Positions 15,297-62,800 of a stretch of 64,000 bases of DNA are shown piece after piece; positions within the stretch are counted from its first letter, which is position 1, and each line of letters starts with the position of its first letter. The stretch lies in the NCBI GenBank assembly GCA_965285935.1, contig OZ260665.1:46066001-46130000 (forward strand). The letters run 5' to 3'. The translations under genes were made by a program, and so were the position numbers. The stretch is from Ophelia neglecta. Taxonomy: Eukaryota. The notes below the pieces were generated by a model that was not told the origin of the DNA, made no database searches, and saw nothing but the letters and a program-made list of their open reading frames with translations.

Positions 15297-17060
15297 TCAA
15301 CTGATTAACAACTTTGGATGGCGAACACCCTTTTTAGCAGCTTGATGGATGTGTCTGTCTATTTTATAAATTTTATGCTTCCCTTTGATTGGAAATTTCA
15401 CCAGAAGCACCTGAGGATTGTCACAAATAAACACAAAGGGACAACTAGATTCTCCACCTGGAAATTTCAATTGGTATTCTTCCTGGGAAAGACAGCTGGT
15501 GACATCAATTGAACCCAACAAACAGCCTACAGGATAAGACTCTGGAAAAGGAAGATTAGCATCTTCATACAGCTCCCGGTACTGCTGCTCTACTTCTGCT
15601 ATTTCATGCACATCTGGTGGTTTTGCTGTGGCTGCTATCCACAGACGCCCTCGATGAGGGGTGTACCAGGTGCGCCCCTCATGCTTTTTTATGCCAGCCA
15701 CCAACAAAGAGGCCCACGGCTGATGCATGCTCATAGCCATTCCATCGTCAGCCATTTCCTGAAGCTCTTTGTCCTGTATTCGCTTCTGCTTTGGTTTACT
15801 ACTTGCACTGACTAGGCCACTACTCCATGCATTGACATCACGATTCATGTTCAACTCTGGTGTGGGCACGAACTGTGGAGCCTGCTGTTTAATGCCCGGA
15901 TTGACCAAGTCCCCAAAATCCTCATTGCTAAAATTTGGCTCACTACCACTGCCGCTTTTCTTCTTACCAAAGTGCACTTCTTGTATAACATCATCATTTG
16001 TATTGTATATATCAATTTCATTATCAGTCTCCAAGACCCGCCGACCAGCAAAATCTAGAACCACTTTTCGGTCTTTACGGGATGCATGTTTCAGAGCTCT
16101 CAACTCCTCTTCCCTTTTCTGAAGCATTTCTTTTTCTTTCTTGCTCAGCCAAGTGTTAGAATCCGTAGAAAAATAATCAGATTCATCATCTATAACTTGT
16201 GTCCTCTTCACACTAGTTCTGTCATACTCCAGAAGGGTATTCTTGTGTTTTATAGCCTTATCTTCGTTTTCCTGCGCCTTGCTAGCCACTGAGGAAAGTG
16301 ACTGGTTGGTCTTTTCATTGGCTGATCCCAACAGATAGGTGCGTAACCTATCACTCTTTTTTGAGCCGCGATTGAGAATCTCCTGTTCCTCCTTTGAGCA
16401 CACTAAAGTTCCACAAAAGATGCAGGGACCAGACCCTTCCTGTTGGCATACTATACGGCCACATTTGGTGCAGTTACTCACCAGGGGGTGTTTTGCAGCT
16501 TGGCATTCACATGGATGACGGCCTGGCATTTTGGCCACCGTCTTTGATTCACCTTGGTCACTGAAAAGAGGGACAAATTTGGATTTCTTTTTAGCGCCCA
16601 TATCTTTACCCTGACTGAAGTCAGATGGGTTAGCAGATCCTCTGGGAGATGTGTTGACAGCTGGGGACTGCTCACTTGGTGTGTTCGGACTGTGATTTTG
16701 AGAATTGTTGGCATTCGAGAGATGCTGTTTTCCCTTCTTCTTTTCTTTTGAACTACTGTCAGGACACATTTTGTACCTGTCATCGTTCAATTCCTTTGGT
16801 TTCCGATAAACAGTGATACCATCTGGCACATAGGTGGTGTCAGGCCGGTGGCTATCACCTGGTGATCGCCATTTCCCTACCAACTCTTCAATAAACTTTC
16901 TGTTTTCAGGCACTGATGCGTCCATAAGCTCGTACATATATTCCTCCAACTCCTTCCGATCGTCGATGGCTAGAATATATTTTGCTATGTCTTCTGTAGC
17001 TTCGATGCCAAGTAATTTTGACATATTCTGACAGACCCATTGCACAACCGGGGAAGCCAT
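15297..17060 (-). CDS. TRIP4: Activating signal cointegrator 1 (TRIP4/ASC-1), 587 aa, single coding exon
   Basis: Uninterrupted 587-aa ORF. It has a PWI-like N-terminus (WVCQNMSKLLG..IAKYILAI), a C2HC5 zinc finger (CECQAAKHPLVSNCTKCGRIVCQQEGSGPCIFCG), the conserved LLEYDRTSVKRTQVIDDESDYF segment and a C-terminal ASCH domain (SMHQPWASLLVAGIKKHEGRTWYTPHRGRLWIAA). Confidence 0.97.
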   Translation of the reverse strand: MASPVVQWVCQNMSKLLGIEATEDIAKYILAIDDRKELEEYMYELMDASVPENRKFIEELVGKWRSPGDSHRPDTTYVPDGITVYRKPKELNDDRYKMCPDSSSKEKKKGKQHLSNANNSQNHSPNTPSEQSPAVNTSPRGSANPSDFSQGKDMGAKKKSKFVPLFSDQGESKTVAKMPGRHPCECQAAKHPLVSNCTKCGRIVCQQEGSGPCIFCGTLVCSKEEQEILNRGSKKSDRLRTYLLGSANEKTNQSLSSVASKAQENEDKAIKHKNTLLEYDRTSVKRTQVIDDESDYFSTDSNTWLSKKEKEMLQKREEELRALKHASRKDRKVVLDFAGRRVLETDNEIDIYNTNDDVIQEVHFGKKKSGSGSEPNFSNEDFGDLVNPGIKQQAPQFVPTPELNMNRDVNAWSSGLVSASSKPKQKRIQDKELQEMADDGMAMSMHQPWASLLVAGIKKHEGRTWYTPHRGRLWIAATAKPPDVHEIAEVEQQYRELYEDANLPFPESYPVGCLLGSIDVTSCLSQEEYQLKFPGGESSCPFVFICDNPQVLLVKFPIKGKHKIYKIDRHIHQAAKKGVRHPKLLIS

Positions 17061-17117
17061 TTTGCATTTTCTGGTTTCTTGTTGAGTGCAGTGAAGAGTT
17101 AGCCTGCCGCGCCTACT

Positions 17118-17300
17118 ACTTCCGATCAGTCACATCATACCACACTGTACCATGCGGGCCAGGAGGGGGGGTCAGGGAGTGGATATTATTTAATGTCGGG
17201 GGGGGGGGGGGGGGGGGCCGGGGGGGGGGGGTTGGGTGGACACATAAACCTTTGCCCCACCGAAGGGGTTTTAGATCATCTTGGGGGGGGGGGGGGGGCA
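17118..17300 (-). promoter_or_regulatory. Putative TRIP4 promoter: ETS-type motif plus G-tract cluster
   Basis: CGGAAGT on the minus strand (acttccg, 17118-17124) lies ~60 nt upstream of the ATG. Several long G runs follow at 17160-17298. Motif match only. Confidence 0.35.
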
Positions 17301-38585: not shown

Positions 38586-41500
38586 ATGAGGCGGACGGGC
38601 TTCATACACATAAGAGCATCCTTCCTCACACTTCTACTTGCTTGGCTCGCCAATGGACAAGGTAGATGAGTGTTATTATCACAACTTCAGCACTGCCCTC
38701 TGCAAATATGTTGCAGGTATTAATTTTACTTTTTTAAGATTTTTATAGGAAAACCATGTTAACTGATATGAAGACATTTTCTTTGTGCCGTTAAACAGTT
38801 GACAAGTACCTATTGGAGGTGCGTGGTACGGTGGAGGTGTGGGGCCACGAGTTGGTGAAGAGGAACCATTCGGGGACAGAAGAGACCCCGCGTTCTTGGG
38901 TCGACAGCGTTGTTTCCCTTCCTGCAGGCAGGATAGTAAAATTTATGGTATGCTCAATATATTTTATTCTTTAGATATAGTGTGATTTTATTTACTTGTT
39001 GTCTTCAAATGAATAGCAGGGTCATAAAAATATAAATATAAATGTAAAAGACTGCTTTTATTCTCTAGTATAACGACCATCACCCATGTTCAAACCACCA
39101 ATCAATTAAACCAAACTAATTCAGCCAAACCTCAACGGAAGGAAATTTCATAATGGCGTTCGCCCCTTAATTTGAACCATTCTGATTGCTAAGCCTGCTT
39201 ACAAATTTGCCGTGACAACCTTTGATTTCGCCGTCTTCGCATCTAGCATGCAATGTTGTGCGAACAAGTGGCTCGAAAACACGTCTTTAGGTTTTGCTAG
39301 GCCTATGTGTTATTAATATCGACCCTAAGAGTTGACTCGGGTTGACTTGGGGAATATCGCTATATATTGTCCTTGGCTCTAGAGCCAATCACATCTGTAT
39401 ACGTAATAATAACTTTATTTGCGTTTCTTCTACTTTTTATAGGCATACATACATCGCGCGCCCTTGCGGTCATCTGTGATTCGTTTCCAAATTTGGCAGG
39501 CGACGGGCCGCATCAGCTACAGACTGCTTTACGAGAAAACAGGAATGGTGCCCATTCGAGAGGGATTGCTTGAGGTAAGAAAGGGGCTTGTAAGCCACAA
39601 TCTATATAGTTAACGACCACGGCAGTCCATACAGAATGGGTGGATTCTATCACATGATGGCATACACGTCTGCGTGGAAAAATTATGAATATAGACATTC
39701 CTAGGAACGCGGTACATTGACATTGAGTACCTGACGAGTTGTTCCTTCTTTCAGGTGAAAGCCGACGCCGACGTGTACATACCGGATCTCTGTCGTATCG
39801 GGTGGACTACGGAGGAGGGTAGGAGCCCAATCAGTTTCGACTTCGTGGAGGGCTATCTTTTATACTTCCGAGGTATCCCCAATGGGAATTATCCCCTAGT
39901 CGATAATACATACGACTTCGCCAGCTTGCCATACCCAGCGATTCATTCAATCGCTGTGGAAATTGACACTAGTAAGTCTCTCTGTCTTCGAGTTAGTTTG
40001 CAAAATTAAGACGCAGAAGACTAATTTGTGAACAAAAAAATCCAAATTGTATACCCAAAGTTACAAAAAAATGTAACGACTGAATTCCAATGTAATATTG
40101 ATGTTGATCACAGAGTGTTATCACAGGGGGTTATAGTTGCTGTAGTCTCACCATTCAGATAAAGTCCAAGACAAGTTCCCTCAGTACAGTGGTGTTATGA
40201 GAATGCACACAGTCGCCCCACCATCATTCCCCTGCATGGATTTAAGTCCCAACTGATGTTGCCCAGTTTGAATTGAACAACACAGTCATGTATCTATTTT
40301 ATATAAAGGACTACCGGGCGCGACTGGTCCACCCGGTCCACCCGGACCAATAGGTCCTCCCGGAGCAGACGGAAAGAATGGACCGGCGGGGATCGCAGGC
40401 CCTAAAGGAGACAAAGGAGAGCCAGGACCTCCCGGACCCTCTGGCCCAACAGGACCGGCTGGACTTCCGGGCAAAGAGGGTCAAGCCGGTGCACCAGGCA
40501 CTATCACAGGTAAGTCAAAGTTTCACTGGTCATGGATTGTTGCCTATACAATTCATAAATGCGTACTAACCCATTGGGAATTAATAACAAAAATTGTTTC
40601 ATCACATTCATTCAGAAATCAAAAAGGATTTGAACATTCTTAACACATTTTTATAATGTATCTTTTATCATCCTAAAACTTCAGACCCTTCACTATTTAA
40701 AACTCGGGAGGCATGTTGAATACCGAAGGAAATATCTCGTAGCAAAAGTATGTGGGTTTGCGTCGTTTGCCTAAAGTTTTCATAGTGACACTTACCTCAA
40801 AATGCCCGATATGATTGAACAAATCGCATCTTAGGTCCATGGACTTTATTCATATACCCACGTTAAGGTATGAAAAGAGCACATGCTGATGTATGATAGT
40901 CAGACATCATTAAACTTTTTATGGTTGCTGCAAAACTTAATGTGCCAAAAAGACCACGAATGCTGATTTTTTGATAAATAATTATCTACATTAGACGTTG
41001 ACGATAACTGTTACTTTAAGAGCGTATTATAGACCGGGAAGATATGTTGCCTGCCAAAGACTATGACATATATTTGTATATCAAAGTAAACTGGAATATA
41101 GTGAATTTGTTAGGCCAAGGTCCAATAAGAATAAGTGAAAACTAAACATTATAAATTTGAAAATAAATGTCTGATGTGAAGTTGGGTTTATAAACTTTTT
41201 GCTAGACAGACACAATGTATGGCATTGTTTTTAGTGTAAACGTGACTAAGCAACACAACTAGAGCATATAATTAAAACTCAGTTCTTCAGAATATAGTCC
41301 AAAAATAGTATCACAAGAAGGTAGCCCTAGATCTCTATAGGTAAAATGCACAGACGCTGTCTGAAAGTAAGCCTTTGCCATTTTTGTAGTAAGGGTTCAC
41401 TATTGGCACATTTTCGTATTAAACATGGTTCTTATGTTATTTTCTACAGATATTGACGAGTGCGAGACCTCTAATGGGGGTTGTAGCCAGACTTGTGAAA

Positions 41501-48203: not shown

Positions 48204-51200
48204 ATGAAGATGGATGCACTGTTGATCCTTCCAGTTCTTTTGGTCCTAGGCCTATGTGCGACTTCAGCCCGTTATGCCGGTAAGCAGGGTTACAATATTT
48301 ACATTAAGAACAACTCTATATCCTGATATAGGTCGGTATACTATATGATATACTTTTAATATTATTTGGTTTGGAATCAAACCACAAGTAAGTACTATTG
48401 ATTATGGAACAGGTAATACTTTTATCAATTTTTCCACATGAATGTAGGAGTATAGATGTGAAAAGTTTGTATTTCTATCATACAGCGAGACGAGTTATGG
48501 TTTATTATTTTCAATGTTAGAGTCTCGCGTGACAACGTCCGGGCATCCTGTGATCGCGAGGACCAACTCGTTTGTCCAAAGCGGTCTTCACCACTCCTAC
48601 GTCGACTATAACATCCTCCTCCTGGCCGGCAGACTCCAGAGCATCAGTGTCTTTATCCATGAAGACAGTAAGGAGCGCACCCCCTGCCGGCTCCAGGTGT
48701 GGGTATCCCGGGATCAAACCCCTCTCCAGTACACGCTCTTCTACCAATACCGAGTAGAACTACCAAATTATAGAGGGGTATTTCGGGTGAGGAGATTTGA
48801 ACAATTAACAATGCAATTTATGTTTCTTTATATGTCTGACATAAAATGCAAGCGTTTAAGTACCTTAGACGGTGCAAAGACAATACATGTACCTATAGAA
48901 CTTATATGGGACTTTCTGAATTTTAAAATAAATGTGCATTTTTGCCCCAACGTGGGGCCAAACAGAGCAAAGAGTGGGGCACGTCAGGACGATGTAGACC
49001 TAATTATCACTATCACCATGGAAAGGCGATCTTTCAATGAATTCATAAAATGACTGTAACAGGGAAAGTCAACCGACAACATGCATAAAGAATTATATAG
49101 GATACTGTTTTTTATGTTTATTTGTGACAAGCACGAGAGCTTCATTGATAAATGAAAACTTTACTTTGCATCGTCTTAATAAGAGTTATGTGTAATGGCA
49201 CAGGTGGAGATTCCCGACACACCTTTGGTGCCTAAGGGCTCCCGTCTGGGATGGACCTACGAGAAGGACACAGGCCCAATTTCGTTTTCCTACCAGGCGG
49301 ACTACCCCCTCTACTACCGACCCATCGACGGCCGGGGCTTCCCGCTTGTGGGTCAAACATACACCTTTCGCAAGGACACCTTTCCGGCTGTTCACTCCAT
49401 CTCGGCGAGCCTACTACGGCTTAACGATTCCGGTGGTAAATGTCTCACACACAGACCCATTTCTAGATTTTAAATTTCGCTTTTATATCAAATGAATCTA
49501 TATGTACAGATGAAAAATATAAATGAGGTTTAAATGTACCTATAGAATGTACCCTATCGTTGAATAGGGGTCAGGGTAGTAAAGCAAATAATGATTGCAA
49601 GAAATTGGTTCTAATTATTAAAAGCTTTGTCTGTTTTTGATCCTGGTGGAAAAGAAGAGACTACAAGTCCATCGTGCCAAGCTGTCTCCACAGAAGGAAC
49701 TGGGCCAACGTATACAGCAAGCTCTTTGTCTGGATATACAGCAATACCTGGGTCTGGCTCCACAGAAGGAAACGAACAACTGACCGATGAAGAGGGGAAT
49801 TCTTGGCCTCATGGAACTATTGTACCTCTTGGCCCATCCCTCAGTGTGGAAGATGTCAGTACCACTAGCATGTTTAGGTCAACTGGACCTGACAATGGAG
49901 AGGTAAAAAGCACCGTCACCCTTCCTGACACAGGACCATCAGTCCCTGCTGGCACGTCAACGGCAACAGGGCCAGCTGGTCAACCAGGGACAACTGCTGC
50001 CCCACTTGAACCAACCGCCCCCCTCGGTCTGACACTGGTTACCGAGGCCACAGATAACCGCGGGTCGACAATGGGCTTACCTAAATTAAATGGGTCTACA
50101 GGGGCAACCGGTCCTGTCGGACTATCTGGGACAACTGGCGTTGCTGGGGGAACCGGCTCGTCTTGCACACCGGCCGCAACTGGGCCAGGTTCAACAGGGG
50201 CAACAGGCATCCCAGGAAGGACGGGGTCTACTGGCTTGATTGGTGGTACCGGATCGAGTGGCGTGGCAGGAACTCCGGGCAAGACCGGCGCAACAGGTAA
50301 GAACAATAAAGAAGCTTTCTTTTGATCAAATTATTTTCCAGCAGGTTTATAAGTCACCCATTTATGGACCCAAATTTAATTTTGATAAGAGAATTTATTC
50401 ATTCAGGAATGCCAGTATTAACAGGTGCTACCGGCCCAAGGGTCCTCTCGAGGGCTAGTCGCAGAGGTAATGCGGAAGAATGGGGCTCGCCCGGCCTCCC
50501 TGGACCAACAGGGGCATCAGGACTTCCCGGCACCGCGGGCGAAACTGGTGCCATTGGTCTAGTTGGACTGGCTGGAGCAACTGGTCCTCCAGGCAATTCA
50601 GGGGCTACTGGGCCAACTGGAACGAAAGGCAAGTAATATATCGCCAGACTAATGCCAAAATGGCCTAAGAGACATTTGGCCGAAATGGGGTTTTGTTTAT
50701 CAAAATTACCGCCTGACCAAGCTCTATCGTCCTAATAATAACACCAACATATATCGATAGTGAAAATGCTTTTTTTGCCAAAAACAAATGGGCATGTTTT
50801 TAGCTTGGCCATTTGGCTTTGATGGCAAGTGCAACTTAGGTTCTTTTGGGACTTCAGATTTCTGTTACTTAGGCCATTTTGGAAATAAATCCTCTAACTT
50901 AGGCCATTTAGGTCACAGAACCATATGTAACTTAGGCCACTTTGGACCTTAGTTCCAAATGTGGACACATCATAACAAAAGACTGTCAATTATTATTGAT
51001 ATCATGAATTGGAGTATTCCATGCGATCAAACACTAAAAATTTAAATGCGTGAAGGGTTAGAGAGACAAAATGGTGATGTGCATAAACTTTTATAGGCGG
51101 CAGTGGCGTTGATGGTGTACCTGGCAATACTGGGGAAACTGGTCAACAGGGTGAGATGGGGTCCACGGGACTAGTAGGAAGTCCAGGTCAGGTGGGATCT

Positions 51201-54200
51201 ACTGGCACTTCAGGCTCTCCTGGAAAGTCAGGGGCAACTGGCCAACCAGGACCTACTGGCTCGATAGGGTCGACAGGAATGAGAGGCTTGTATGGGATTC
51301 CAGGAGTAACCGGAGCAACTGGGAGCCAGGGAGCAACTGGATTCCCGGGAATAATCGGGCCAGCTGGAGAAACGGGCCCTACCGGACACCAAGGACAAAC
51401 AGGGGCTAAAGGTATCGTATCCTCCATCGCCATTTGCTTTAGATGGCAGATTTACATATACTATTGGCATGCAAGTATTTGTAACTAAACGGGCTTTTAT
51501 TGCCCGTTTATATTGCAGGAACTGCAGGAATCACGGGGAGTTCTGGTCCCAGTGGTCCACCTGGCTTGCCTGGTCGCTCTGGGGCAACGGGTCCACAGGG
51601 CTTTCCGGGACAAGCTGGCTCCATTGGATATTCGGGTAAGACCGGTGCCACCGGTGTTGCAGGAGAGCCAGGCAAGACTGGCTGGACAGGACCTGAAGGT
51701 CCCCAAGGAAAACACGGCGTCACAGGAGTCCGGGGCTTACCTGGCCTAGACGGGGCCACAATCCAGGCCGGAATTCTAGGTTAGGTATAAACCGAATTAG
51801 CCGTATGTACAGATGTCATTGACGAGTACTCATTTTTGAAATAGACAGGGGTATTATGTTGAATGTATTCCTTATAGGGAAGTAGCCTCGGGCATGAACA
51901 ATTTTTATGCAAAACTTATTCAAGCGGCAAATCAATTTAGTTGGAATTTATATTCATTCTATAGGACCCACCGGGGCAACTGGACAGAGTGGAGAGACTG
52001 GTGCAACGGGCATGCAAGGGAAAACAGGTGCTTCTGGAGAAAGCGGCCCGGAAGGCAGCAGGGGACAGCTTGGTGAGAGGGGAGGGGTTGGCGCCACTGG
52101 ACCGTCTGGGGAAACCGGAACTGCCGGAGAGACCGGTTCTACTGGGCCTCAAGGGGAAACGGGAGCAACAGGTGGTCCGGGACGCACCGGTAGTATGGGG
52201 GCCACAGGAAGAGAGGGCCTAACTGGACTAGTGGGCCAGCCTGGAGAAACTGGTAAGTGTGTGGGTTAGCACACAGAAAAATGATAACAGGTGATCAAAT
52301 ATACACTTTACGTTTAACTAAAACAGCCATCATGCCTATAGGGCCTAATTGAATTGCATCAAAGTTATTTCCTCGAGGCAAGGTGAGGCTGGCGCCACCG
52401 GCTCAGTGGGCCCGACTGGTGCTGTTGGTGCTACAGGCCAAGGCGGAAAAACTGGGGGTACAGGAACTGTGGGTCCTTCCGGGAAGACGGGAGCCACCGG
52501 AGAAGGAGGAAGAATCGGCGATTCGGGTGTTCCTGGGAAAACTGGAGCTCGTGGACAAGCGGGTTTCACTGGGCCTGGTGGGGAGACAGGAGCAACAGGA
52601 GCGGATGGGGAAACAGGTGCAACAGGAGAAAGAGGAAACAAGGGGAAAACTGGAGCAACAGGCAAGTTACTTTAAGCCTTTAGAGGAATTATGAATGACC
52701 TTTGAATCACTTATATACATATGTATTTCAATTTGTACATGCGTTATTAGACTGTTTATAAGATAGTATTAACAATGGCGATGGGCATGCTTGTTCACTT
52801 GAAGGCGAAAGAGGGGAGCCAGGTTCGACCGGTGAATCTGGCTTCACGGGGTCGACGGGAAAAGATGGAAATGTAGGCATTGCAGGAGCAACGGGGCTCC
52901 CGGGAGAAAGTGGGGCTAGTGGTCCTCCTGGCCAAACTGGACCCGGTGGCAAAGATGGAATAGTGGGGCCTCCGGCAGAAACTGGTGCCACCGGCCAACC
53001 AGGAGAGACGGGGGCGACCGGTCATCGGGGTGAGCCAGGGCCAGCTGGTCCCGCGGGGGGATCAAAGTCCAATGGAGAGCCTGGTGCCACAGGCATCATG
53101 GGCGAGACTGGTGCCACAGGAGAGCAGGGGGTAGCCGGCCGCCCTGGTGTGTTTGGTGCAACTGGACACACTGGACCCATGGGTGAGAATGTCGAGTTGG
53201 TCAGGGCATTATATTGCTATACATTTGTTCACAGTAAATCGACTTTTGTTAACGTTCCAGCAATAAACAATCGTAAATTTGGGAATTTATCTTTCAGGTG
53301 AAAGTGGTGCAACAGGGCCTCCCTACGAAGGTTGCTCTTAAGTCTACTAGAATAAGATAATGCGTTTTTCATTTATCTTACCAAAAAAGGCATGTAGTTT
53401 AGATCAAAAGTGTTTTTCCTCTGTAGATGTAAATGAGTGTGCTGAAGACACCCACACCTGTAGTCAGCTATGTCTCAACACGTTTGGGGGTTATCGTTGT
53501 GAATGTCAGGAGGGCTTTCAACTACAGGCCGACAACCAGAATTGTAAAGGTCAGAGAGCAAATATAGCCAACATGGGGTTAACAGGGGCTAAGTCCATAC
53601 ACATGGGTTCAATTACCATTATCCAGTCTACCCCAAAACTAACTTATAGCTTTCATATAATATATATATACATATATACATATATACTAGAATCCATTTT
53701 TCGGATTGCAATCAGTCCAGTTTGGTTTTAAGAAAAAGATAACATAGTGTTGTGATGTTCTCTCTGTTGTCTTTAGACGTTGACGAGTGCCAGATTTACA
53801 TGCCCTGTATGCAGAACTGTACCAACTTTGTCGGTTCTTACTCCTGTTCCTGCTTCGAGGGCTTTACACAGTCGTCTGATCTTCATTTATGTGAAGGTAA
53901 CGAAACAGTACATCAACGATACTTCATTCACTCCAATAACAGGATAATTGGATAATTTGCCATACCCACGTGGGGGATGTAATTCACAAGTTACTGGTAA
54001 ATGCATAATACACCCTCGTCTTCAATTGATATCGACGTCCGCACACTTTAAAACCCTCCACGAAAAATTCATTCATAACTGCCGTTATCAATTTTTTAAA
54101 AGCGGTTTCTTTATATGCTCTGTGTATAGATATAAACGAGTGTGAAGAGGAGCCTGGTATTTGTCAGCAGTGGGATAACACCTTATGTTACAACACATAT

Positions 54201-55037
54201 GGAAGTTACCACTGTATCGGCATAGACCTCGGTCTCTTGGCTAAAATGGGAATACTCAACTACGTTTACGGCCCTGGTCAGAAAGGTAAGTTCACAGGAC
54301 CGAAACTTCTTCAAATCACTTCATTTACTATCTACTCATACCAATGATGGAATGTCGTGGTCAATAGTGTCGAAACACTTAAGTTTGATTTAAAAAAGCA
54401 TTTCCACCACCAAATCGTCATTTACGACAACGGGTGGGTCAATAATGACTTTGTGTAAATAAGTTGGAGTAGAATGAAAAATAGTCGATTATAGTCCATG
54501 CTCCAGTTGGAGGTCCTGATTTGTAGTCAGACTGTTTTTGTGATAGGGATGACTTGTCTGCGTATTTCCTGAGATGCTATTTCGCTTGCACAGCAGAGCT
54601 TTGAGGTGGCTTTAATTTATAGGGTCTCAAGCCGCACACGGGAATTTACCACAGGCTAGGTTAGCACTGTATATTGTATAATGTACATTGTTTTAGTGAA
54701 TGGTTTTCTTCTACTTTCAGGATCCAAGGCGGAGATGAGAGAAATTAGCAGTAAATTGGCAGGCAGTGAAGTGGCTGACCATTCCTCTGCTCTAATGATT
54801 CCAGATTTTGTTCTTTACGTAGTCGTAGCTGTTCTTGCTGTGTGCCTAATATCAGTGATCATTCTTGCTGTCGTTTTTTACAAGCACATCCACAAAGGCC
54901 GTAACTCGTACCAAGAAAACTCGAGCCTAGAGTCTGCACCCCAACACCATTCCATCATCCCCATAGGCCTAACCACTTCGTCGAGTGTTGATGACAAATA
55001 TCATTATGACGACGATCTTAATGGAACATTTTTATAA
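48204..55037 (+). CDS. Type-I membrane collagen-EGF protein, paralog B (~1245 aa): signal peptide, unassigned N-domain, S/T/P stalk, ~188 Thr-rich Gly-X-Y triplets, 2 cbEGF + truncated EGF, TM, tail
   Basis: Hand-spliced exons: 48204-48279 ([25 protein letters not shown]), 48521-48786, 49204-49435, 49625-50296, 50407-50628, 51097-51411, 51519-51779, 51965-52252, 52383-52661, 52805-53182, 53298-53330, 53427-53549 (EGF), 53777-53896 (EGF), 54130-54285 (truncated EGF), 54721-55037 ([27 protein letters not shown]). Total 3738 nt, in frame. Pure collagen exons are multiples of 9 nt with phase-1 junctions inside Gly codons. The model needs two GC-AG introns. Confidence 0.88.
50648..50958. mobile_element. 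Fold-back MITE-like insertion in intron 5 of paralog B
   Basis: Left end gactaatgccaaaatggcctaag is an imperfect inverse of the right end cttaggccactttggaccttagttc. The motif acttaggcca(t/c)tt recurs three times at ~50867-50945. No TSD confirmed. Confidence 0.45.
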
Positions 55038-57184: not shown

Positions 57185-59821
57185 TCAACACTCTACCAAT
57201 ACTATGTTAAAACACAAAAAGAAGCTGGTTATGCGATACAGTTGACTAAATGGCATAAATATATGTTCTATTAGTTCGAATCTTTCATGACCAAAATAAA
57301 ATGTATTTGTTGGCATCAAACTTGGATTTTTCAGTTCTACGAACGAGTTAATTCCCCATAGAAACCCATTTGAAAGCATGAGCCACAGCGATACATTAAA
57401 TAACACCAGTCTTTGGAGAGGGGGCCCGACCTTTACGTTAAGTGATCGGATATGTATGAGAAGAGTTGTTTGTAAAAAGAACTGGGCGATGTTAATAAAG
57501 CGCTCAATATAGCAAAATGTCAGGTAATGATTGCTGAGATTTGGTCTCTTTTCGTTAACAAGCACGAATTGGCAAGTATTATTTACCTGCATGCAGGTTT
57601 TCCAGATGTCGTTTTCTGTGCTATCATTTCTTTTGGATGTTCCCATTAGAAATGCTGTGCAAGCATAAATTGAAAAAAAAACGTGAGTGTAAAATCCAAA
57701 AGAAGTTAATATCATGAGGGTTTCTAAGCCACTACGCTTCTGGCCCTTAAGCGTATTGAATTTCGTTGTAAACGATTCACATGCCCAATAGCCCCCCAGG
57801 CATACGCACACCATCAAGGACTGGTATACAAGTTTGAAAACTTCGTACGCTAATCTATACTGATAATCATATGTTTCTGAAACTGCAAGGATTGATCCAT
57901 TGACCTGAATTGAATAATCTGGAGTAGTTTTTGCAGAACCAAAGCTTGTCCGGAAAGATCTTGGTACAATCTCGCCGTCTTGTCCTGTATGGAAGTTGTC
58001 GTCCTCGACTTTGGTAAACAGTCCAAGTACAAAATGAATGACACTGAGCAGAGCCGAGACGATGATGACAATACCTGCCGTGCTGACAGCGGCACGCCTG
58101 TCCGAGTCGGTGATAGCTCCCTGACCATCTGGCCACTTACTTCTTTGATATACCTGACTATTTTGCACTTCTATGTCTATATTTTGTGTTCTTTGCGAAA
58201 CGTTTTGATCCAAATTGCATGGTTTTCTGGCTGATTTAATTAATGTATTTCGCATCTTATGCTTATTTGCGCGCTTTTTTCCTTCGAGAACAACACAGGC
58301 CCTTTGCGAAGCGAGATCTGTTGATCCGTAGATACTGCCAACCGTTGACAAAGCTTCATCGTCAGAACTGGAATCTGTGAGGTCTGTCCCTAAATCATGT
58401 ACGATAGCATTCCTGGAAATCAAACATGTGTTTTCTGATATTCTGTCATTGCCTTTCCCTGAAGAACTTCTTCTCAAAGTTCTACACCTGTTTTTTGACT
58501 GGTAGCTTCCAGATGGACCTGCCCGCACTTCACTGCTTCCTTCGTCTGATGAGTCTCTTTCTCCGACGGCAGAAACAAGGATTGATAAAATTTCTACCAC
58601 CAACAGAGCAAATTCGATGTGCACTGTGTAAGTGAAAGAGCTAACATATGCTTGATACTCAAACGGTTTGGTGGTATGATTAAGGCACGACTTGTCCTGT
58701 GATGACAATTCTGACAGGTTTGTCCGGCATTGAGTGTAGTATGTATCATGTTTTCCACCTTCAAATAAGTTTTTCGATTCGAACAGGAATGTTTCCACCC
58801 ACAAAGCTAGAGTTGTGGACATCATTATAAATAAACTGTACAATACCCACCAAGTTCGCTTCATTGTCCTCGTATGTGTCAAAAGGCAAAACAGAAATTC
58901 CAACGACATGAACAGTATTCTTAATATTCTGAACGTGACTTCTATGACGTATGGCCACGTTAGTCTACACTGCTTATAAGTTTTCATACACCAAGAAATA
59001 CCTGCAATAGGAAATATATCCCTAAAGCATCCAATAAGCAAAAAAATGCTCATGCAAATGATGGTAATGCTGCCGCTGAGTATCTTTTTCCACGCATGCT
59101 GACCTTCAGGGCAACACGTATGTTGTTCTTCATCCTGGTGGATGAACAACTCCTGCCTGCAAAGGATGGTCGTGATCACAGCCATGGCTAGTACCAGCTG
59201 GATGGAGAGGATCAGCGATAAGTGTGCAGGCTCCACGGCGACGGTCTGCTGATAGGACATCCACCTGGTCATAATTATACTGGTATTCATAGCCAGTATC
59301 ACCAGGAAGACGCCTTGGGCCGAGATGAATCCATCCTGAGAAAAAGTATACGTTAAGTCGTCTGTCGTCTGCTGCCGTCCACATAGCTCTGCGATGTCCG
59401 CAGTCCTCGGGAGCTGTTCATCTGCTAGCTGAGATGTGAGGGATTCTTTTTTCCTAGCATCGGTCAAACGATTGATAGGATTGCTGTTTTTCTTTCCGGT
59501 TTTGCTGGTAGATGATTGACCAGAGCCCTGAGAACAACCGACGTCCTGTTCTGGTGTCGTTTTGGCCTGACATCGTCTTGCTGGCTCCATATCGCCGCTC
59601 TTTCTGATGATCGGTTGTATTTCGACATGATATCCCACATTAAAGCACCTGATGAGAAATTTCAGATGGCCTGGTATTGATTTCAATCGCTGCCACACAG
59701 TCATATTACCAAAGAAGACTTCCCACAAATAAATTAGTCCAATGATATATATGCAAAAACTATATTTGTTAAATGACTCTTTTGCCAATATTTCACCGTC
59801 CTCTAGATTCCAACCTGGCAT
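57185..59821 (-). CDS. Divergent otopetrin-family 12-TM protein (proton-channel-like), single long ORF; true start uncertain
   Basis: Two blocks of six hydrophobic helices separated by a long Ser-rich loop. Otopetrin-like signatures: TTLALW..FLFE (TM5), FTYTVHIEFAL (TM6, cf. YLYPFxIEYSL), LETLMIL..FFSIYA (TM9), QFFLQTTLL (TM10), LMLSNGFLW..SF (TM11) and FYFG..IEHIFMPFSQLYRITS (TM12, cf. FYG..PLxIFYRFHS). The ORF track starts at a GTG at 59830 and the first ATG is at 59821. Downstream Mets (MTVW, MEPA) are also possible starts. Confidence 0.82.
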   Translation of the reverse strand: MPGWNLEDGEILAKESFNKYSFCIYIIGLIYLWEVFFGNMTVWQRLKSIPGHLKFLIRCFNVGYHVEIQPIIRKSGDMEPARRCQAKTTPEQDVGCSQGSGQSSTSKTGKKNSNPINRLTDARKKESLTSQLADEQLPRTADIAELCGRQQTTDDLTYTFSQDGFISAQGVFLVILAMNTSIIMTRWMSYQQTVAVEPAHLSLILSIQLVLAMAVITTILCRQELFIHQDEEQHTCCPEGQHAWKKILSGSITIICMSIFLLIGCFRDIFPIAGISWCMKTYKQCRLTWPYVIEVTFRILRILFMSLEFLFCLLTHTRTMKRTWWVLYSLFIMMSTTLALWVETFLFESKNLFEGGKHDTYYTQCRTNLSELSSQDKSCLNHTTKPFEYQAYVSSFTYTVHIEFALLVVEILSILVSAVGERDSSDEGSSEVRAGPSGSYQSKNRCRTLRRSSSGKGNDRISENTCLISRNAIVHDLGTDLTDSSSDDEALSTVGSIYGSTDLASQRACVVLEGKKRANKHKMRNTLIKSARKPCNLDQNVSQRTQNIDIEVQNSQVYQRSKWPDGQGAITDSDRRAAVSTAGIVIIVSALLSVIHFVLGLFTKVEDDNFHTGQDGEIVPRSFRTSFGSAKTTPDYSIQVNGSILAVSETYDYQYRLAYEVFKLVYQSLMVCVCLGGYWACESFTTKFNTLKGQKRSGLETLMILTSFGFYTHVFFSIYACTAFLMGTSKRNDSTENDIWKTCMQVNNTCQFVLVNEKRPNLSNHYLTFCYIERFINIAQFFLQTTLLIHIRSLNVKVGPPLQRLVLFNVSLWLMLSNGFLWGINSFVELKNPSLMPTNTFYFGHERFELIEHIFMPFSQLYRITSFFLCFNIVLVEC

Positions 59822-62800
59822 GTGCCACACTTCAAGGTTGGGGGTTTGTCGGAGCTTGACAACCTATATTCTTCCTGCCCTCTCTCTTTTTCACCACTCA
59901 GGACATTTAGTCTTTGTCATCACTTGACTTTTTTGGTGTTTATTTTTGCATGCCGACTTTCCTTTCACTAAAGGATATCCTATATGGTGATTTATTAGAT
60001 ATCCTATATGGTCTTCTCCGATATTAGTATATCTTATGACAGTAACTGTTTGAAATCAGCTGTTCTTAATTATAGGACTCAAACATGGTAATAAAACCAA
60101 GCGAATCGCTCGCTGTATTCAAATTGAAAAGTGAAGTGACACAACGAATGATTAATCTACAATTAATGGCCGCTGCAAAAAGCGGAATATCCCACTGTGG
60201 TTTAGTTTTCAAGCCAAATCTTGAAAGTGTAGTAACGTGTTAGAAAAATAAAAGTTTTTCGTAATCTTCTGGACGGAAATCTTAATAATGTAATAATGTT
60301 CTGTATGTATACCTAAATTGTTGGGAAAATAGTTTTTTGGTGCAACTAAGGGAGCTTGCATGATTTTATCGGTATACTTATAGATATATAATAGTAATCC
60401 GCTTAAAGCTGGAATTCCAACAGAGTTCAATCCCACTTAAGTCGCAATTTTTCTAGTACAATAAAACCGGGAAATAAAGAGTTTGCAGCTGGTACCACTG
60501 AGGGGAAAGTAATAGCCAGTTCATATAACAATCTTAATCTCGGTAACAACACACCCAAAATTTTATAACCTCATCAAATGTTGCAGGGAAAACACATTGG
60601 TTTGTCAAAAAAAAACAATAAGGCCTATAGGCCTATCTGCAACTCATTCTGCACCACCACGCCATAAATTCAGACTTTTCCCTAGGCGGTGGATGATCAT
60701 CATCACATGGTTCTAGATTCTGGTGATAATTTTCTTTCAAAAAACGTGATGGTTTTTACTTATTACGACCATATCTAGTATAATAAATATGGGCAAGTAT
60801 ATGGTCTGCCGGTAGCGGGAACCAGTTCTAGCTGGGTGGTAACCGCTCAACTTTACTTTTTGCACGGTCAAAGATGGGGATGCAAGCAGTCGGACGACAA
60901 AAATATATTCAGCCCCCATCTATTCAAGACACATTTAAATATGCAAGAACAAAATATTATAAAATAAAAGACGAAATATATCGAACGATTGGATGAATAC
61001 TCGGCAAAATTTTGCTAAGTCCCAAACTGTTGAATTTAAGAACAGGACTGATTTCTTCGTGTTTCAGTCAGAAAGTTTTAAATTAATGAGAAGTCTGGGA
61101 TTCGCCATTAAATTTGTGTTTTTCGTCTGGGCGGTGCTTTTCGAACACAATACACCATGTTATATGATATATATCATGTTTAATGTCTGGAGATGTCGTA
61201 CATCATTTAAGACAGAGGTAGCTAACGTATGATTTGTGTGCCTTGAGGGCAAGTAGGCCTATTCAGTTTCCCATAATTACTAGGGAAAATGGCCAGCGAC
61301 GCACGGTTGGTTATAAAATCTAAGAGCATTTGTTCATAAATTGGGAGCACACAAAAACAACTTCCTAGATTTCGGCCTCTCAATCTGCCTTTTCCCAGCA
61401 TCGGTCATATATACAACAAACTGAACGCTAGGGGCTAAGTTCAAACGGCGTCATTCTTTGTATTGTCATATAATAAATATGTGCTCCAAATTTGTAAACC
61501 TGTCTTGTCCCCCTTTTTTCCAATGACCCATGGCCAAGTCATGCCGACGAGTAATGTGTTCATTTAGCCAAATTTTCTTGTATATTGTTTCTTGTATCCT
61601 AAACATTTAGAAATTTGGCAGAATTTCCTACTCTATTCACAGCGATCGTAAGCTACAAATAGAAAGTAAAACTTCGGCAATGGATAAGGTCAGGCTCTGG
61701 TTCAAACATTCAGATCACCAAAGTATGATTTTTATGCATGTATTAATCAATAAGTAATGTTTGGTGATGATATTGTTAAGACACTGCATAATTTATGAGC
61801 CAAAGTCCCTACAGACTTATCCTACCAAAAAAATGCAACTTTGTTGTCTGTGTATGTTCAAACGCTGCTTCGTTCTTAGTAAAAAAGATGCGTATTAAGT
61901 TATATTAATCTTTCGGGAATAACGGTTAAGGCACAGTGGACTGGTTTGTGTAATAGTAACCATTAGTCTATAAGCCTATATCTCAAATTTTGAATTATTC
62001 ATTTAGAATTCAGAAACGTCATTTAAAAGCAGCTTTTCGCAGAAATGTAACAAGCTGTTTTTAGAACGTTTGGCTGATCTATTTGGCGCAATGTGTAAGT
62101 ACTTTATTATGGATGGGGTATGCATGTACTCAATGCAGGCCTGGCTTAATAGCTGCTTGCATTTCTACTGATTATGAAAAGTACGTTTTGAACGATTGCA
62201 TAAGCTTTTTCATATTTATAATAATCACTTTGCTCATCAGTTTTAATAAAAAAAATTTTACATTTATAGTGACTTGTCTGATATGTTTTGTATATTATTA
62301 ATTACGTCTGCAATAGCCCAATCGACATTGTCAAAGTTGAAATGAAAGAAATGAAATGAACAATGAAATAATTACATATATATTGATACAATACTCAAAC
62401 CTCACGGTTGTTGCCAAATGACACTGAGATGGACTGTTTTTAAAACAAACACAGTATGTCACTTCGAAAGCAGCATAATTCCGGAAAAAAAAATAAAACA
62501 ACTCAATATAGAGCCCATTTCAGAATACTGCAAGTAATTTAAAGTTGAAAATATGTTCAACAATTTTTTTTCGTAATCAACTGGGACTTTACAGTAAATT
62601 TATTATTGCGTACATTTTCCATGGTTCAGAGAAAAAAATTATCTAGCTGACTTTGAAGAGAGATACACTATTGAATTTCCAGTCGTCATATTTCCATAAG
62701 ACAGTATATGTTTTGTCTCTTGGCCTAGTATGGCATATTTATCAAACTCACTGACACTAAATATAGCACAGGGCATTACCTCACTATGTAATGATGTTAT

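Follow-up and report, generated by a model that had tools for sequence, protein, structure and literature searches.

A predicted threonine-rich membrane collagen and its giant neighbour in the genome of Ophelia neglecta

A window of 64,000 nucleotides from Ophelia neglecta (contig OZ260665.1, positions 46,066,001 to 46,130,000) contains a gene, here called gene B, that is predicted to encode a type I membrane collagen with threonine (Thr) at 39% of the Y sites of its Gly-X-Y triplets. Together with a giant neighbour outside the window, gene C, it likely belongs to an annelid family, and its Y-site Thr residues are likely O-glycosylated and would then replace hydroxyproline as the stabiliser of the triple helix. 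We assign this reading as a whole a probability of about 0.55. Gene structures, composition, domain order, and the conservation of gene C and of a short paralog, gene A, were established here.

Genes A, B and C

The models of genes A and B were assembled from splice signals and reading frame. The gene B model comprises 15 exons on the plus strand (48204-55037) and encodes 1,222 amino acids (aa) with no internal stops, in the order signal peptide, N-terminal domain (N-domain), linker, collagen helix, three Ca-EGF domains, C-terminal membrane helix, and short tail. Scanning the window in all six frames revealed Gly-X-Y runs on the plus strand only, at 40308-40505, in gene A, and at 50092-53190, in gene B.

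48204-48279 (+): gene B exon 1, start codon and predicted signal peptide (hydrophobic aa 4-22, mean hydropathy 2.13)
48521-48786 and 49204-49435 (+): gene B exons 2-3, N-domain of ~165 aa, without a Pfam family
49694-50296 (+): gene B exon 4, linker of 132 aa, then the first helix runs (8 and 13 triplets); acceptor picked by frame
50407-50628, 51097-51411 and 51519-51779 (+): gene B exons 5-7, main Gly-X-Y region
51965-52252 and 52383-52661 (+): gene B exons 8-9, main Gly-X-Y region
52805-53182 and 53298-53330 (+): gene B exons 10-11, main Gly-X-Y region
53427-53549, 53777-53896 and 54130-54285 (+): gene B exons 12-14, three EGF_CA domains, all above the Pfam curated cut-off
54721-55037 (+): gene B exon 15, predicted membrane helix at aa ~1151-1169, followed by basic stop-transfer residues, a short tail in the cytosol, and the stop codon
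38586-42911 (+): gene A, 9 exons, 480 aa, same architecture as gene B, with one short Pro-rich collagen exon at 40309-40509

The helix of gene B consists of 208 triplets in seven runs with six interruptions, and its predicted length is ~178 nm. Exons 5-11 are all of phase 1 and contain the longest runs (78 and 83 triplets), with GC donors after 50628 and after 52661. Pfam Collagen matches exon 8 (E 1.6e-15). The linker is rich in Thr, Gly, Pro, and Ser and resembles decayed triplets. Both A and B have a signal-like N-terminus and their strongest hydrophobic helix close to the C-terminus (mean hydropathy of 3.45 in the predicted membrane helix of B), which supports an earlier proposal that B is a membrane collagen. 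The single R-x-x-R of B, at aa 408, lies inside a helix interruption, and neither the A nor the B ectodomain contains an R-X-K/R-R site. A dispersed repeat with many partial matches among read contigs lies in intron 5 of gene B (50636-51042).

The preliminary description of this DNA had counted Thr at the Y site in 15 of 32 triplets of exon 8 (Pro in 2) and 15 of 31 triplets of exon 9 (Pro in 1), and had set these against 8 Pro and 2 Thr at Y among the 22 triplets of the unspliced gene A frame at 40308-40505. These counts are exact; in spliced gene A the first Gly becomes Arg, leaving 21 triplets with 7 Pro and 2 Thr at Y. The X/Y composition of the whole B helix, which the same description had proposed as a check, upheld the abundance of Thr (82/208 Y sites) but not the scarcity of Pro, which is still found at 30/208. 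The Thr enrichment is specific to the Y sites, as X sites carry Thr in just 8/208 and Pro in 27/208 cases (Thr at X versus Y, p=3e-20).

As a baseline, four loci of this genome (one fibrillar, three type IV), located by COLFI and C4 searches, were pooled. The Gly-periodic loci at C2:8.03M, C7:10.04M, C8:27.24M, and C12:70.43M were excluded, being simple tandem repeats, the composition scan dropped runs with >60% Gly and strands with <15 triplets, and the C4 fibrillar stretches yielded no triplet runs. Pooled baseline Y sites carry Thr in 44/1,151 and Pro in 406/1,151 cases, and Thr occupies 2-5% of Y sites in the fibrillar and type IV collagens of the genome. Gene B differs from this baseline in both Thr (p=3e-42) and Pro (p=5e-10). 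Compared with gene A, B differs in Thr at Y (p=0.008), while the contrast in Pro (7/21 versus 30/208, p=0.054) is marginal because A has 21 triplets only.

A and B are paralogs, as had been proposed, with N-domains 31% identical (E 3e-25) and the same EGF and membrane end. The further claim that the two genes, as sisters, use different stabilisation chemistry is not supported in that form; the Thr difference is real, but A and B are better described as two points on a gradient of Thr at Y that runs from A-type proteins of other animals (21/111) through B (39%) to gene C (68%). The description of B as largely hydroxylation-independent was overstated. Its helix mixes both stabilising routes, Thr and Pro, and the two exons originally counted are the most Pro-poor part of the gene (Pro at 3/63 Y sites versus 27/145 elsewhere, p=0.009).

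Gene C was found by searching the genome with exon 8 of gene B. It lies on C8 (loci L016-L021), 9-60 kb to the left of the window and hence outside it.

C8:46057033-46005706 (-): gene C, whole model
46057033-46056729 and 46040872-46040656 (-): gene C N-domain exons
46032391-46011767 (-): 20 gene C collagen exons, all AG..GT and phase 1, encoding 5,207 aa with no stops
Ending at 46005706 (-): four gene C EGF-like exons and a membrane exon, in frame

A signal exon of gene C was not located. The gene C helix comprises 1,729 triplets, 1,622 of them without interruption, and its Y sites are occupied by Thr in 1,178 cases (68%) and by Pro in 52 (3%). Pro is present at 421/1,729 X sites, charges amount to 0.19 per triplet, and Lys occurs at only 2 Y sites of the 1,622-triplet helix. 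The rise of a collagen helix is 0.286 nm per residue, which gives a predicted length of ~1.48 µm.

A collapsed repeat or assembly artefact was rejected as an explanation for gene C, in which the longest exact repeat is 34 nt and the best internal identity is 82% over ~110 nt. Contigs of short reads from three DNA-type runs of a single study, which may represent the source sample, match 8.3 kb of its 20.6-kb collagen region with no indels listed; no single piece spans the region, and in one run three joints are misassemblies at short repeats. Nine exonic differences to these contigs were observed (5 synonymous, 4 non-synonymous), none at a triplet Gly. A metagenome contig from another animal (L124) carries both C-type N-domain exons plus a corresponding run of collagen exons (Thr at 191/406 Y sites up to the end of the stretch covered), and is a probable orthologue of gene C. 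Among 466 candidates in the protein collection, with lengths of 567-2,000 aa only, no long C-type protein was found.

The N-domain family and further collagen genes

A profile search with the N-domain exon retrieved 200 proteins at E ≤0.001, and the family survey rests on the best 150 of these. Twenty homologues were looked up, and the seven named by organism are all annelid (one from Capitella, five from Owenia, one from Ridgeia). Two of the representative matches, P0147 and P0171, were discarded as unrelated repeat proteins. The N-domain of gene A is 51% identical to that of Capitella ELT93466, and six proteins of other animals share the full A architecture with 12-26 triplets each (pooled Y sites, Thr 21/111 and Pro 31/111). 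Among annelids, the short A type is conserved. The N-domain is also found without collagen. Among its atlas neighbours are clusters in which the few members with names come from sponges, suggesting that the domain itself may be older than annelids. In the N-domain tree, B has a long branch (1.68) and clusters with the A type; C belongs to a separate group.

Host placement was based on an intronless TRIP4/ASC-1 gene of the window (15297-17129, minus strand). In the TRIP4 tree the host falls with Capitella (SH-aLRT 87), inside a group with Owenia (93), and thus likely groups with annelids.

The N-domain gave no match to any Pfam family and no sequence match in the PDB. The homologue P0203 was modelled as a β-sandwich (pLDDT 86.7), with a phage tail tip chain as best structural match (VIA Z 11.5), followed by a cyanophage capsid chain (Z 11.2) and Cwp84 (Z 10.3); these three alignments cover 140-165 residues at rmsd 3.1-3.5. 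Carbohydrate-binding modules (CBMs) match the model at Z ~6-7. Given these matches, a lectin- or CBM-like β-sandwich that binds carbohydrate is a lead only.

Additional N-domain copies were observed on C7. A tandem array of ~7 copies without collagen nearby is found at C7:63.517-63.528M (L096-L097), and C-type copies, 74-76% identical to the second exon of gene C, at C7:71.21M and 71.33M (L049, L061-L062) have no same-strand collagen within 200 kb, the 71.21M match carrying a stop codon. Further genes combining an N-domain with a short collagen were found at C7:45.15M and C7:58.64M (L099, L078, L141). The collagen of the former is Pro-rich (Thr at Y 0/22); the latter has Thr at 10/44 Y sites, EGF exons, and weak N-domain matches.

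The following additional collagen genes were identified in the genome.

C8:55.47-55.55M: three Thr-rich collagen genes in tandem, Thr at Y 172/392, 135/643 and 172/346
C1:106.92M: Thr-rich collagen gene, Thr at Y 145/339
C1:92.97-93.01M and 93.05-93.09M (L064-L068, L107-L114): giant collagen pair, divergently transcribed, 2,912 and 2,922 triplets

In each gene of the C8 trio and in the C1:106.92M gene (L074-L077, L102, L116-L122), the collagen region is followed by EGF-like exons and a membrane-type exon. Within this one genome the family is graded from ~10% to 68% Thr. The C1 giants have a predicted length of ~2.5 µm, are rich in GPA, GER, and GPS triplets, and carry Pro at 38% and 43% of X sites and 20% and 22% of Y sites. 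Their last 100 triplets are Thr-rich (33 and 24, versus ~6% and 3% in mid-helix). Both finish with a membrane-type exon, which the exon junctions indicate to be in frame, and the plus-strand giant has a VWA domain ahead of the helix. A genome search with the membrane exon of one giant matched only itself.

Short, mostly single-exon frames rich in G-X-T were also noted at C8:17.43-17.48M, C8:19.94M, C1:55.18M, and C1:118.60M, with Thr at 131/291, 58/145, 17/31, and 26/117 Y sites, respectively. No EGF or membrane exon was recognised near them, and they are possibly secreted partners. A single minus-strand frame at C9:15.40-15.41M (L103) encodes 342 uninterrupted triplets rich in GVQ, GPI, and GPE, with Thr at 3% of Y sites. 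Elsewhere in the window, an intronless frame of 892 codons with many hydrophobic stretches (57185-59863, minus strand) had no Pfam match at E 0.01; by eye, it may resemble an otopetrin-like multi-pass membrane protein.

Helix stabilisation and comparison with known collagens

The chemistry proposed for this family, glycosylated Thr as helix stabiliser, has precedent. The cuticle collagen of Riftia pachyptila is reported to be stabilised by glycosylated Thr (PMC11766948), and the peptide (Gly-Pro-Thr)10 is described as a random coil when bare and triple-helical once galactosylated (PMC11923368). According to the same source, Thr triplets are over-frequent in prokaryotes and viruses and not in eukaryote collagens. 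With so little Pro at Y and few charges, the gene C helix has little else to hold it, which leaves glycosylation as its likeliest stabiliser. Members of the family are best read as type I membrane collagens, likely epidermal and, like the Riftia protein, likely stabilised by O-glycosylated Thr. The genome contains 47 matches to galactosyltransferase family PF01762, which do not count as specific evidence.

A possible course of assembly, in which we infer glycosylation, trimer formation, tissue, shedding, and lectin function, is as follows. The chains would enter the endoplasmic reticulum and be kept anchored by the C-terminal membrane helix. Three chains would align close to the membrane, with the anchor presumably holding the register where folding begins, and the helix would then zip outward from the C- to the N-terminus, the usual direction for collagens. 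Sugars on Thr would stabilise the helix, aided by the remaining Pro sites. The rod would be displayed on cells of presumed epidermal origin and either stay tethered or be shed into the cuticle; the putative lectin-like N-terminal domain may bind neighbouring glycosylated rods. Gene B itself would be a fast-evolving duplicate of the short A type that has a longer helix and is decaying at its 5' end.

The Riftia cuticle collagen resembles the genes described here in its annelid source, the dominance of glycosylated Thr, not hydroxyproline, at the stabilising positions, and a very long helix (PMC11766948, PMC10141479, PMC6953826). It is known from protein chemistry, and the membrane helix, EGF domains, and β-sandwich N-domain of B and C go unmentioned for it in the available parts of those sources. 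In gene C, Thr dominates the Y sites, Pro is low, and the helix exceeds 1 µm. Gene B shows the same composition more weakly, and at ~180 nm only it is too short to be filed as a Riftia-type member. The annelid identity of the host has moderate support.

Annelid cuticle collagens have been described as combining globular domains with very long helices (PMC11766948), and molecules up to 2.4 µm have been cited (PMC2443231). Collagens of 7,700-8,900 aa are reported from Alvinella, Paralvinella, and Eisenia, and none of this length from the siboglinid predictions (PMC12403961). The C1 pair matches these giants in length and Pro use, whereas B and C are of a Thr-rich, Pro-poor type; a membrane helix, a VWA domain, and a Thr-rich class all go unmentioned in the accessible portion of that account.

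A broader proposal, which we hold tentatively and at somewhat less than even odds, is that annelids synthesise their cuticle collagens as type I membrane proteins. Gene C, the full-strength version and the leading candidate for the class of gene that underlies Riftia-type cuticle collagen, would then represent the glyco-threonine class (~1.5 µm), the C1 pair would represent the 2.4-µm Alvinella/earthworm type, and the shorter G-X-T collagen-EGF-membrane proteins, including B, would tether and order fibres at the epidermal surface.

Other collagens with related features differ in architecture. The vertebrate transmembrane collagens XIII, XVII, XXIII, and XXV also have a membrane-anchored and potentially shed triple helix, but they are type II proteins with an N-terminal anchor, whereas the family here has EGF domains and is predicted to be type I, anchored at the C-terminus; neither A nor B shows an N-terminal anchor with a C-terminal ectodomain. 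C-terminal COLFI or C4 domains, typical of fibrillar and type IV collagens, are absent, and those matches map to other loci. CCBE1 and similar proteins likewise combine collagen and Ca-EGF domains within one chain, but in the opposite order, and are secreted with a short Pro-rich helix. In Bacillus BclA and viral G-X-T proteins, Thr triplets also replace hydroxyproline and glycosylation is the proposed stabiliser (PMC11923368). The present genes are animal genes: they are spliced at phase-1 introns, encode EGF domains, and have homologues in annelids. This indicates convergence with bacterial G-X-T proteins; bacterial contamination was rejected on these grounds.

Alternative readings and significance

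Several observations weigh against the reading of B and C as glyco-Thr membrane collagens of one annelid family. Pro is retained at the Y sites of B as given above, the four further Thr-rich genes have no N-domain match in the stretches examined, and the B N-domain groups with the A type rather than with C (support 87). The host tree is a quick single-gene TRIP4 tree of 31 rows with no starred support. No C-type protein from a siboglinid was found among the 466 candidates of 567-2,000 aa, and the length match of C (1.48 µm) to the Riftia collagen depends on the value taken for the latter (1.5 µm). An Owenia protein with this N-domain has Thr at 22/47 Y sites, and Oweniidae are reported to have no layered cuticle collagen fibres (PMC10127387). 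In bacteria, collagens lacking both modifications can still be stable (PMC11923368).

The condition of gene B adds to these points, with six helix interruptions, a decayed linker, and the long branch. The linker keeps a Gly or near-Gly period above shuffles (p=0.0025), with Thr followed by Gly or near-Gly in 15/23 cases (p=0.015), suggesting that part of a longer B helix has decayed. All 7 exonic differences of B to the read contigs are non-synonymous, one being Gly to Glu at a triplet Gly; the non-synonymous share exceeds that of C (4/9, p=0.034), on small numbers from one study. No B-specific orthologue was seen among the best 150 of the 200 N-domain matches. B may accordingly be read as a decaying, weakly constrained duplicate, its Thr inherited or an amplified GAT-type repeat and its product a mucin-like glycosylated stalk rather than a stable triple helix. 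Yet its 15 exons hold one frame with usable splice sites, the two longest runs of triplets are perfect, differences occur about half as often per base in exons (7 in 3,669 bp) as in introns (13 in 3,165 bp), both indels are intronic, and decay of B leaves gene C unexplained. We regard this explanation as unlikely, although it survives best among the alternatives. Gene B looks fast-evolving, relaxed, and partly decayed, not dead, and it may not be the working example of a Thr-stabilised collagen. A compensating frameshift at its exon 5 interruption was rejected, with no indels there in three runs.

Alternatively, the G-X-T membrane collagens could be long surface rods or adhesion or sensing receptors and not cuticle fibre, for instance microvillar tethers or attachments to tube, chaetae, or egg coat, with the bulk of the cuticle coming from the 2,920-triplet pair alone. 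The EGF domains, membrane helix, and Ser-rich cytosolic tails kept in the family would suit such a role, as would the conservation of the short A type across annelids, the occurrence of the N-domain without collagen, the lack of an R-X-K/R-R site in the A and B ectodomains, and the agreement of the C1 giants with published long annelid collagens. However, the long unbroken helix of C with its near absence of Lys at Y suits a structural fibre, the C1 giants share the membrane end and the Thr-rich last 100 triplets, and the sole animal precedent found in the sources available for Thr-dominated Y sites is a cuticle collagen. This possibility appears improbable, more so than decay of B. That the Y-site Thr is unglycosylated and the helix held by hydroxyproline at X, lateral packing, or a low habitat temperature is very improbable: C does have Pro at 421/1,729 X sites and earthworm cuticle collagen is rich in 4-hydroxyproline there (PMC8233474), but 4-hydroxyproline at X is reported to show no positive correlation with melting temperature (PMC8233474), bare (Gly-Pro-Thr)10 is a random coil (PMC11923368), and C is poor in both Y-site Pro and charges.

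This family of genes appears undescribed, as do its type I membrane architecture and its giant Thr-rich member; in the open literature, with subscription journals outside the scope, no description of a membrane-anchored or Thr-rich annelid collagen gene was found. Stabilisation by glycosylated Thr in animals has been known from one protein, by chemistry, and this protein had no matching gene in the siboglinid predictions compared in the available part of the Alvinella genome paper (PMC12403961). Full gene sequences are now available for testing it, and long Pro-poor collagen templates are on offer for biomaterial work. The results presented here suggest that glyco-Thr stabilisation is a device of annelids in general and not an adaptation to vents. 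If annelid cuticle collagens do arise as type I membrane proteins, the C-terminal anchor would replace the propeptide in chain registration and would explain the ordered layering of micrometre-long helices between microvilli. Membrane anchors on the longest collagens would offer a testable mechanism for annelid cuticle assembly, in which worm skin fibres may start out tethered at the cell surface.

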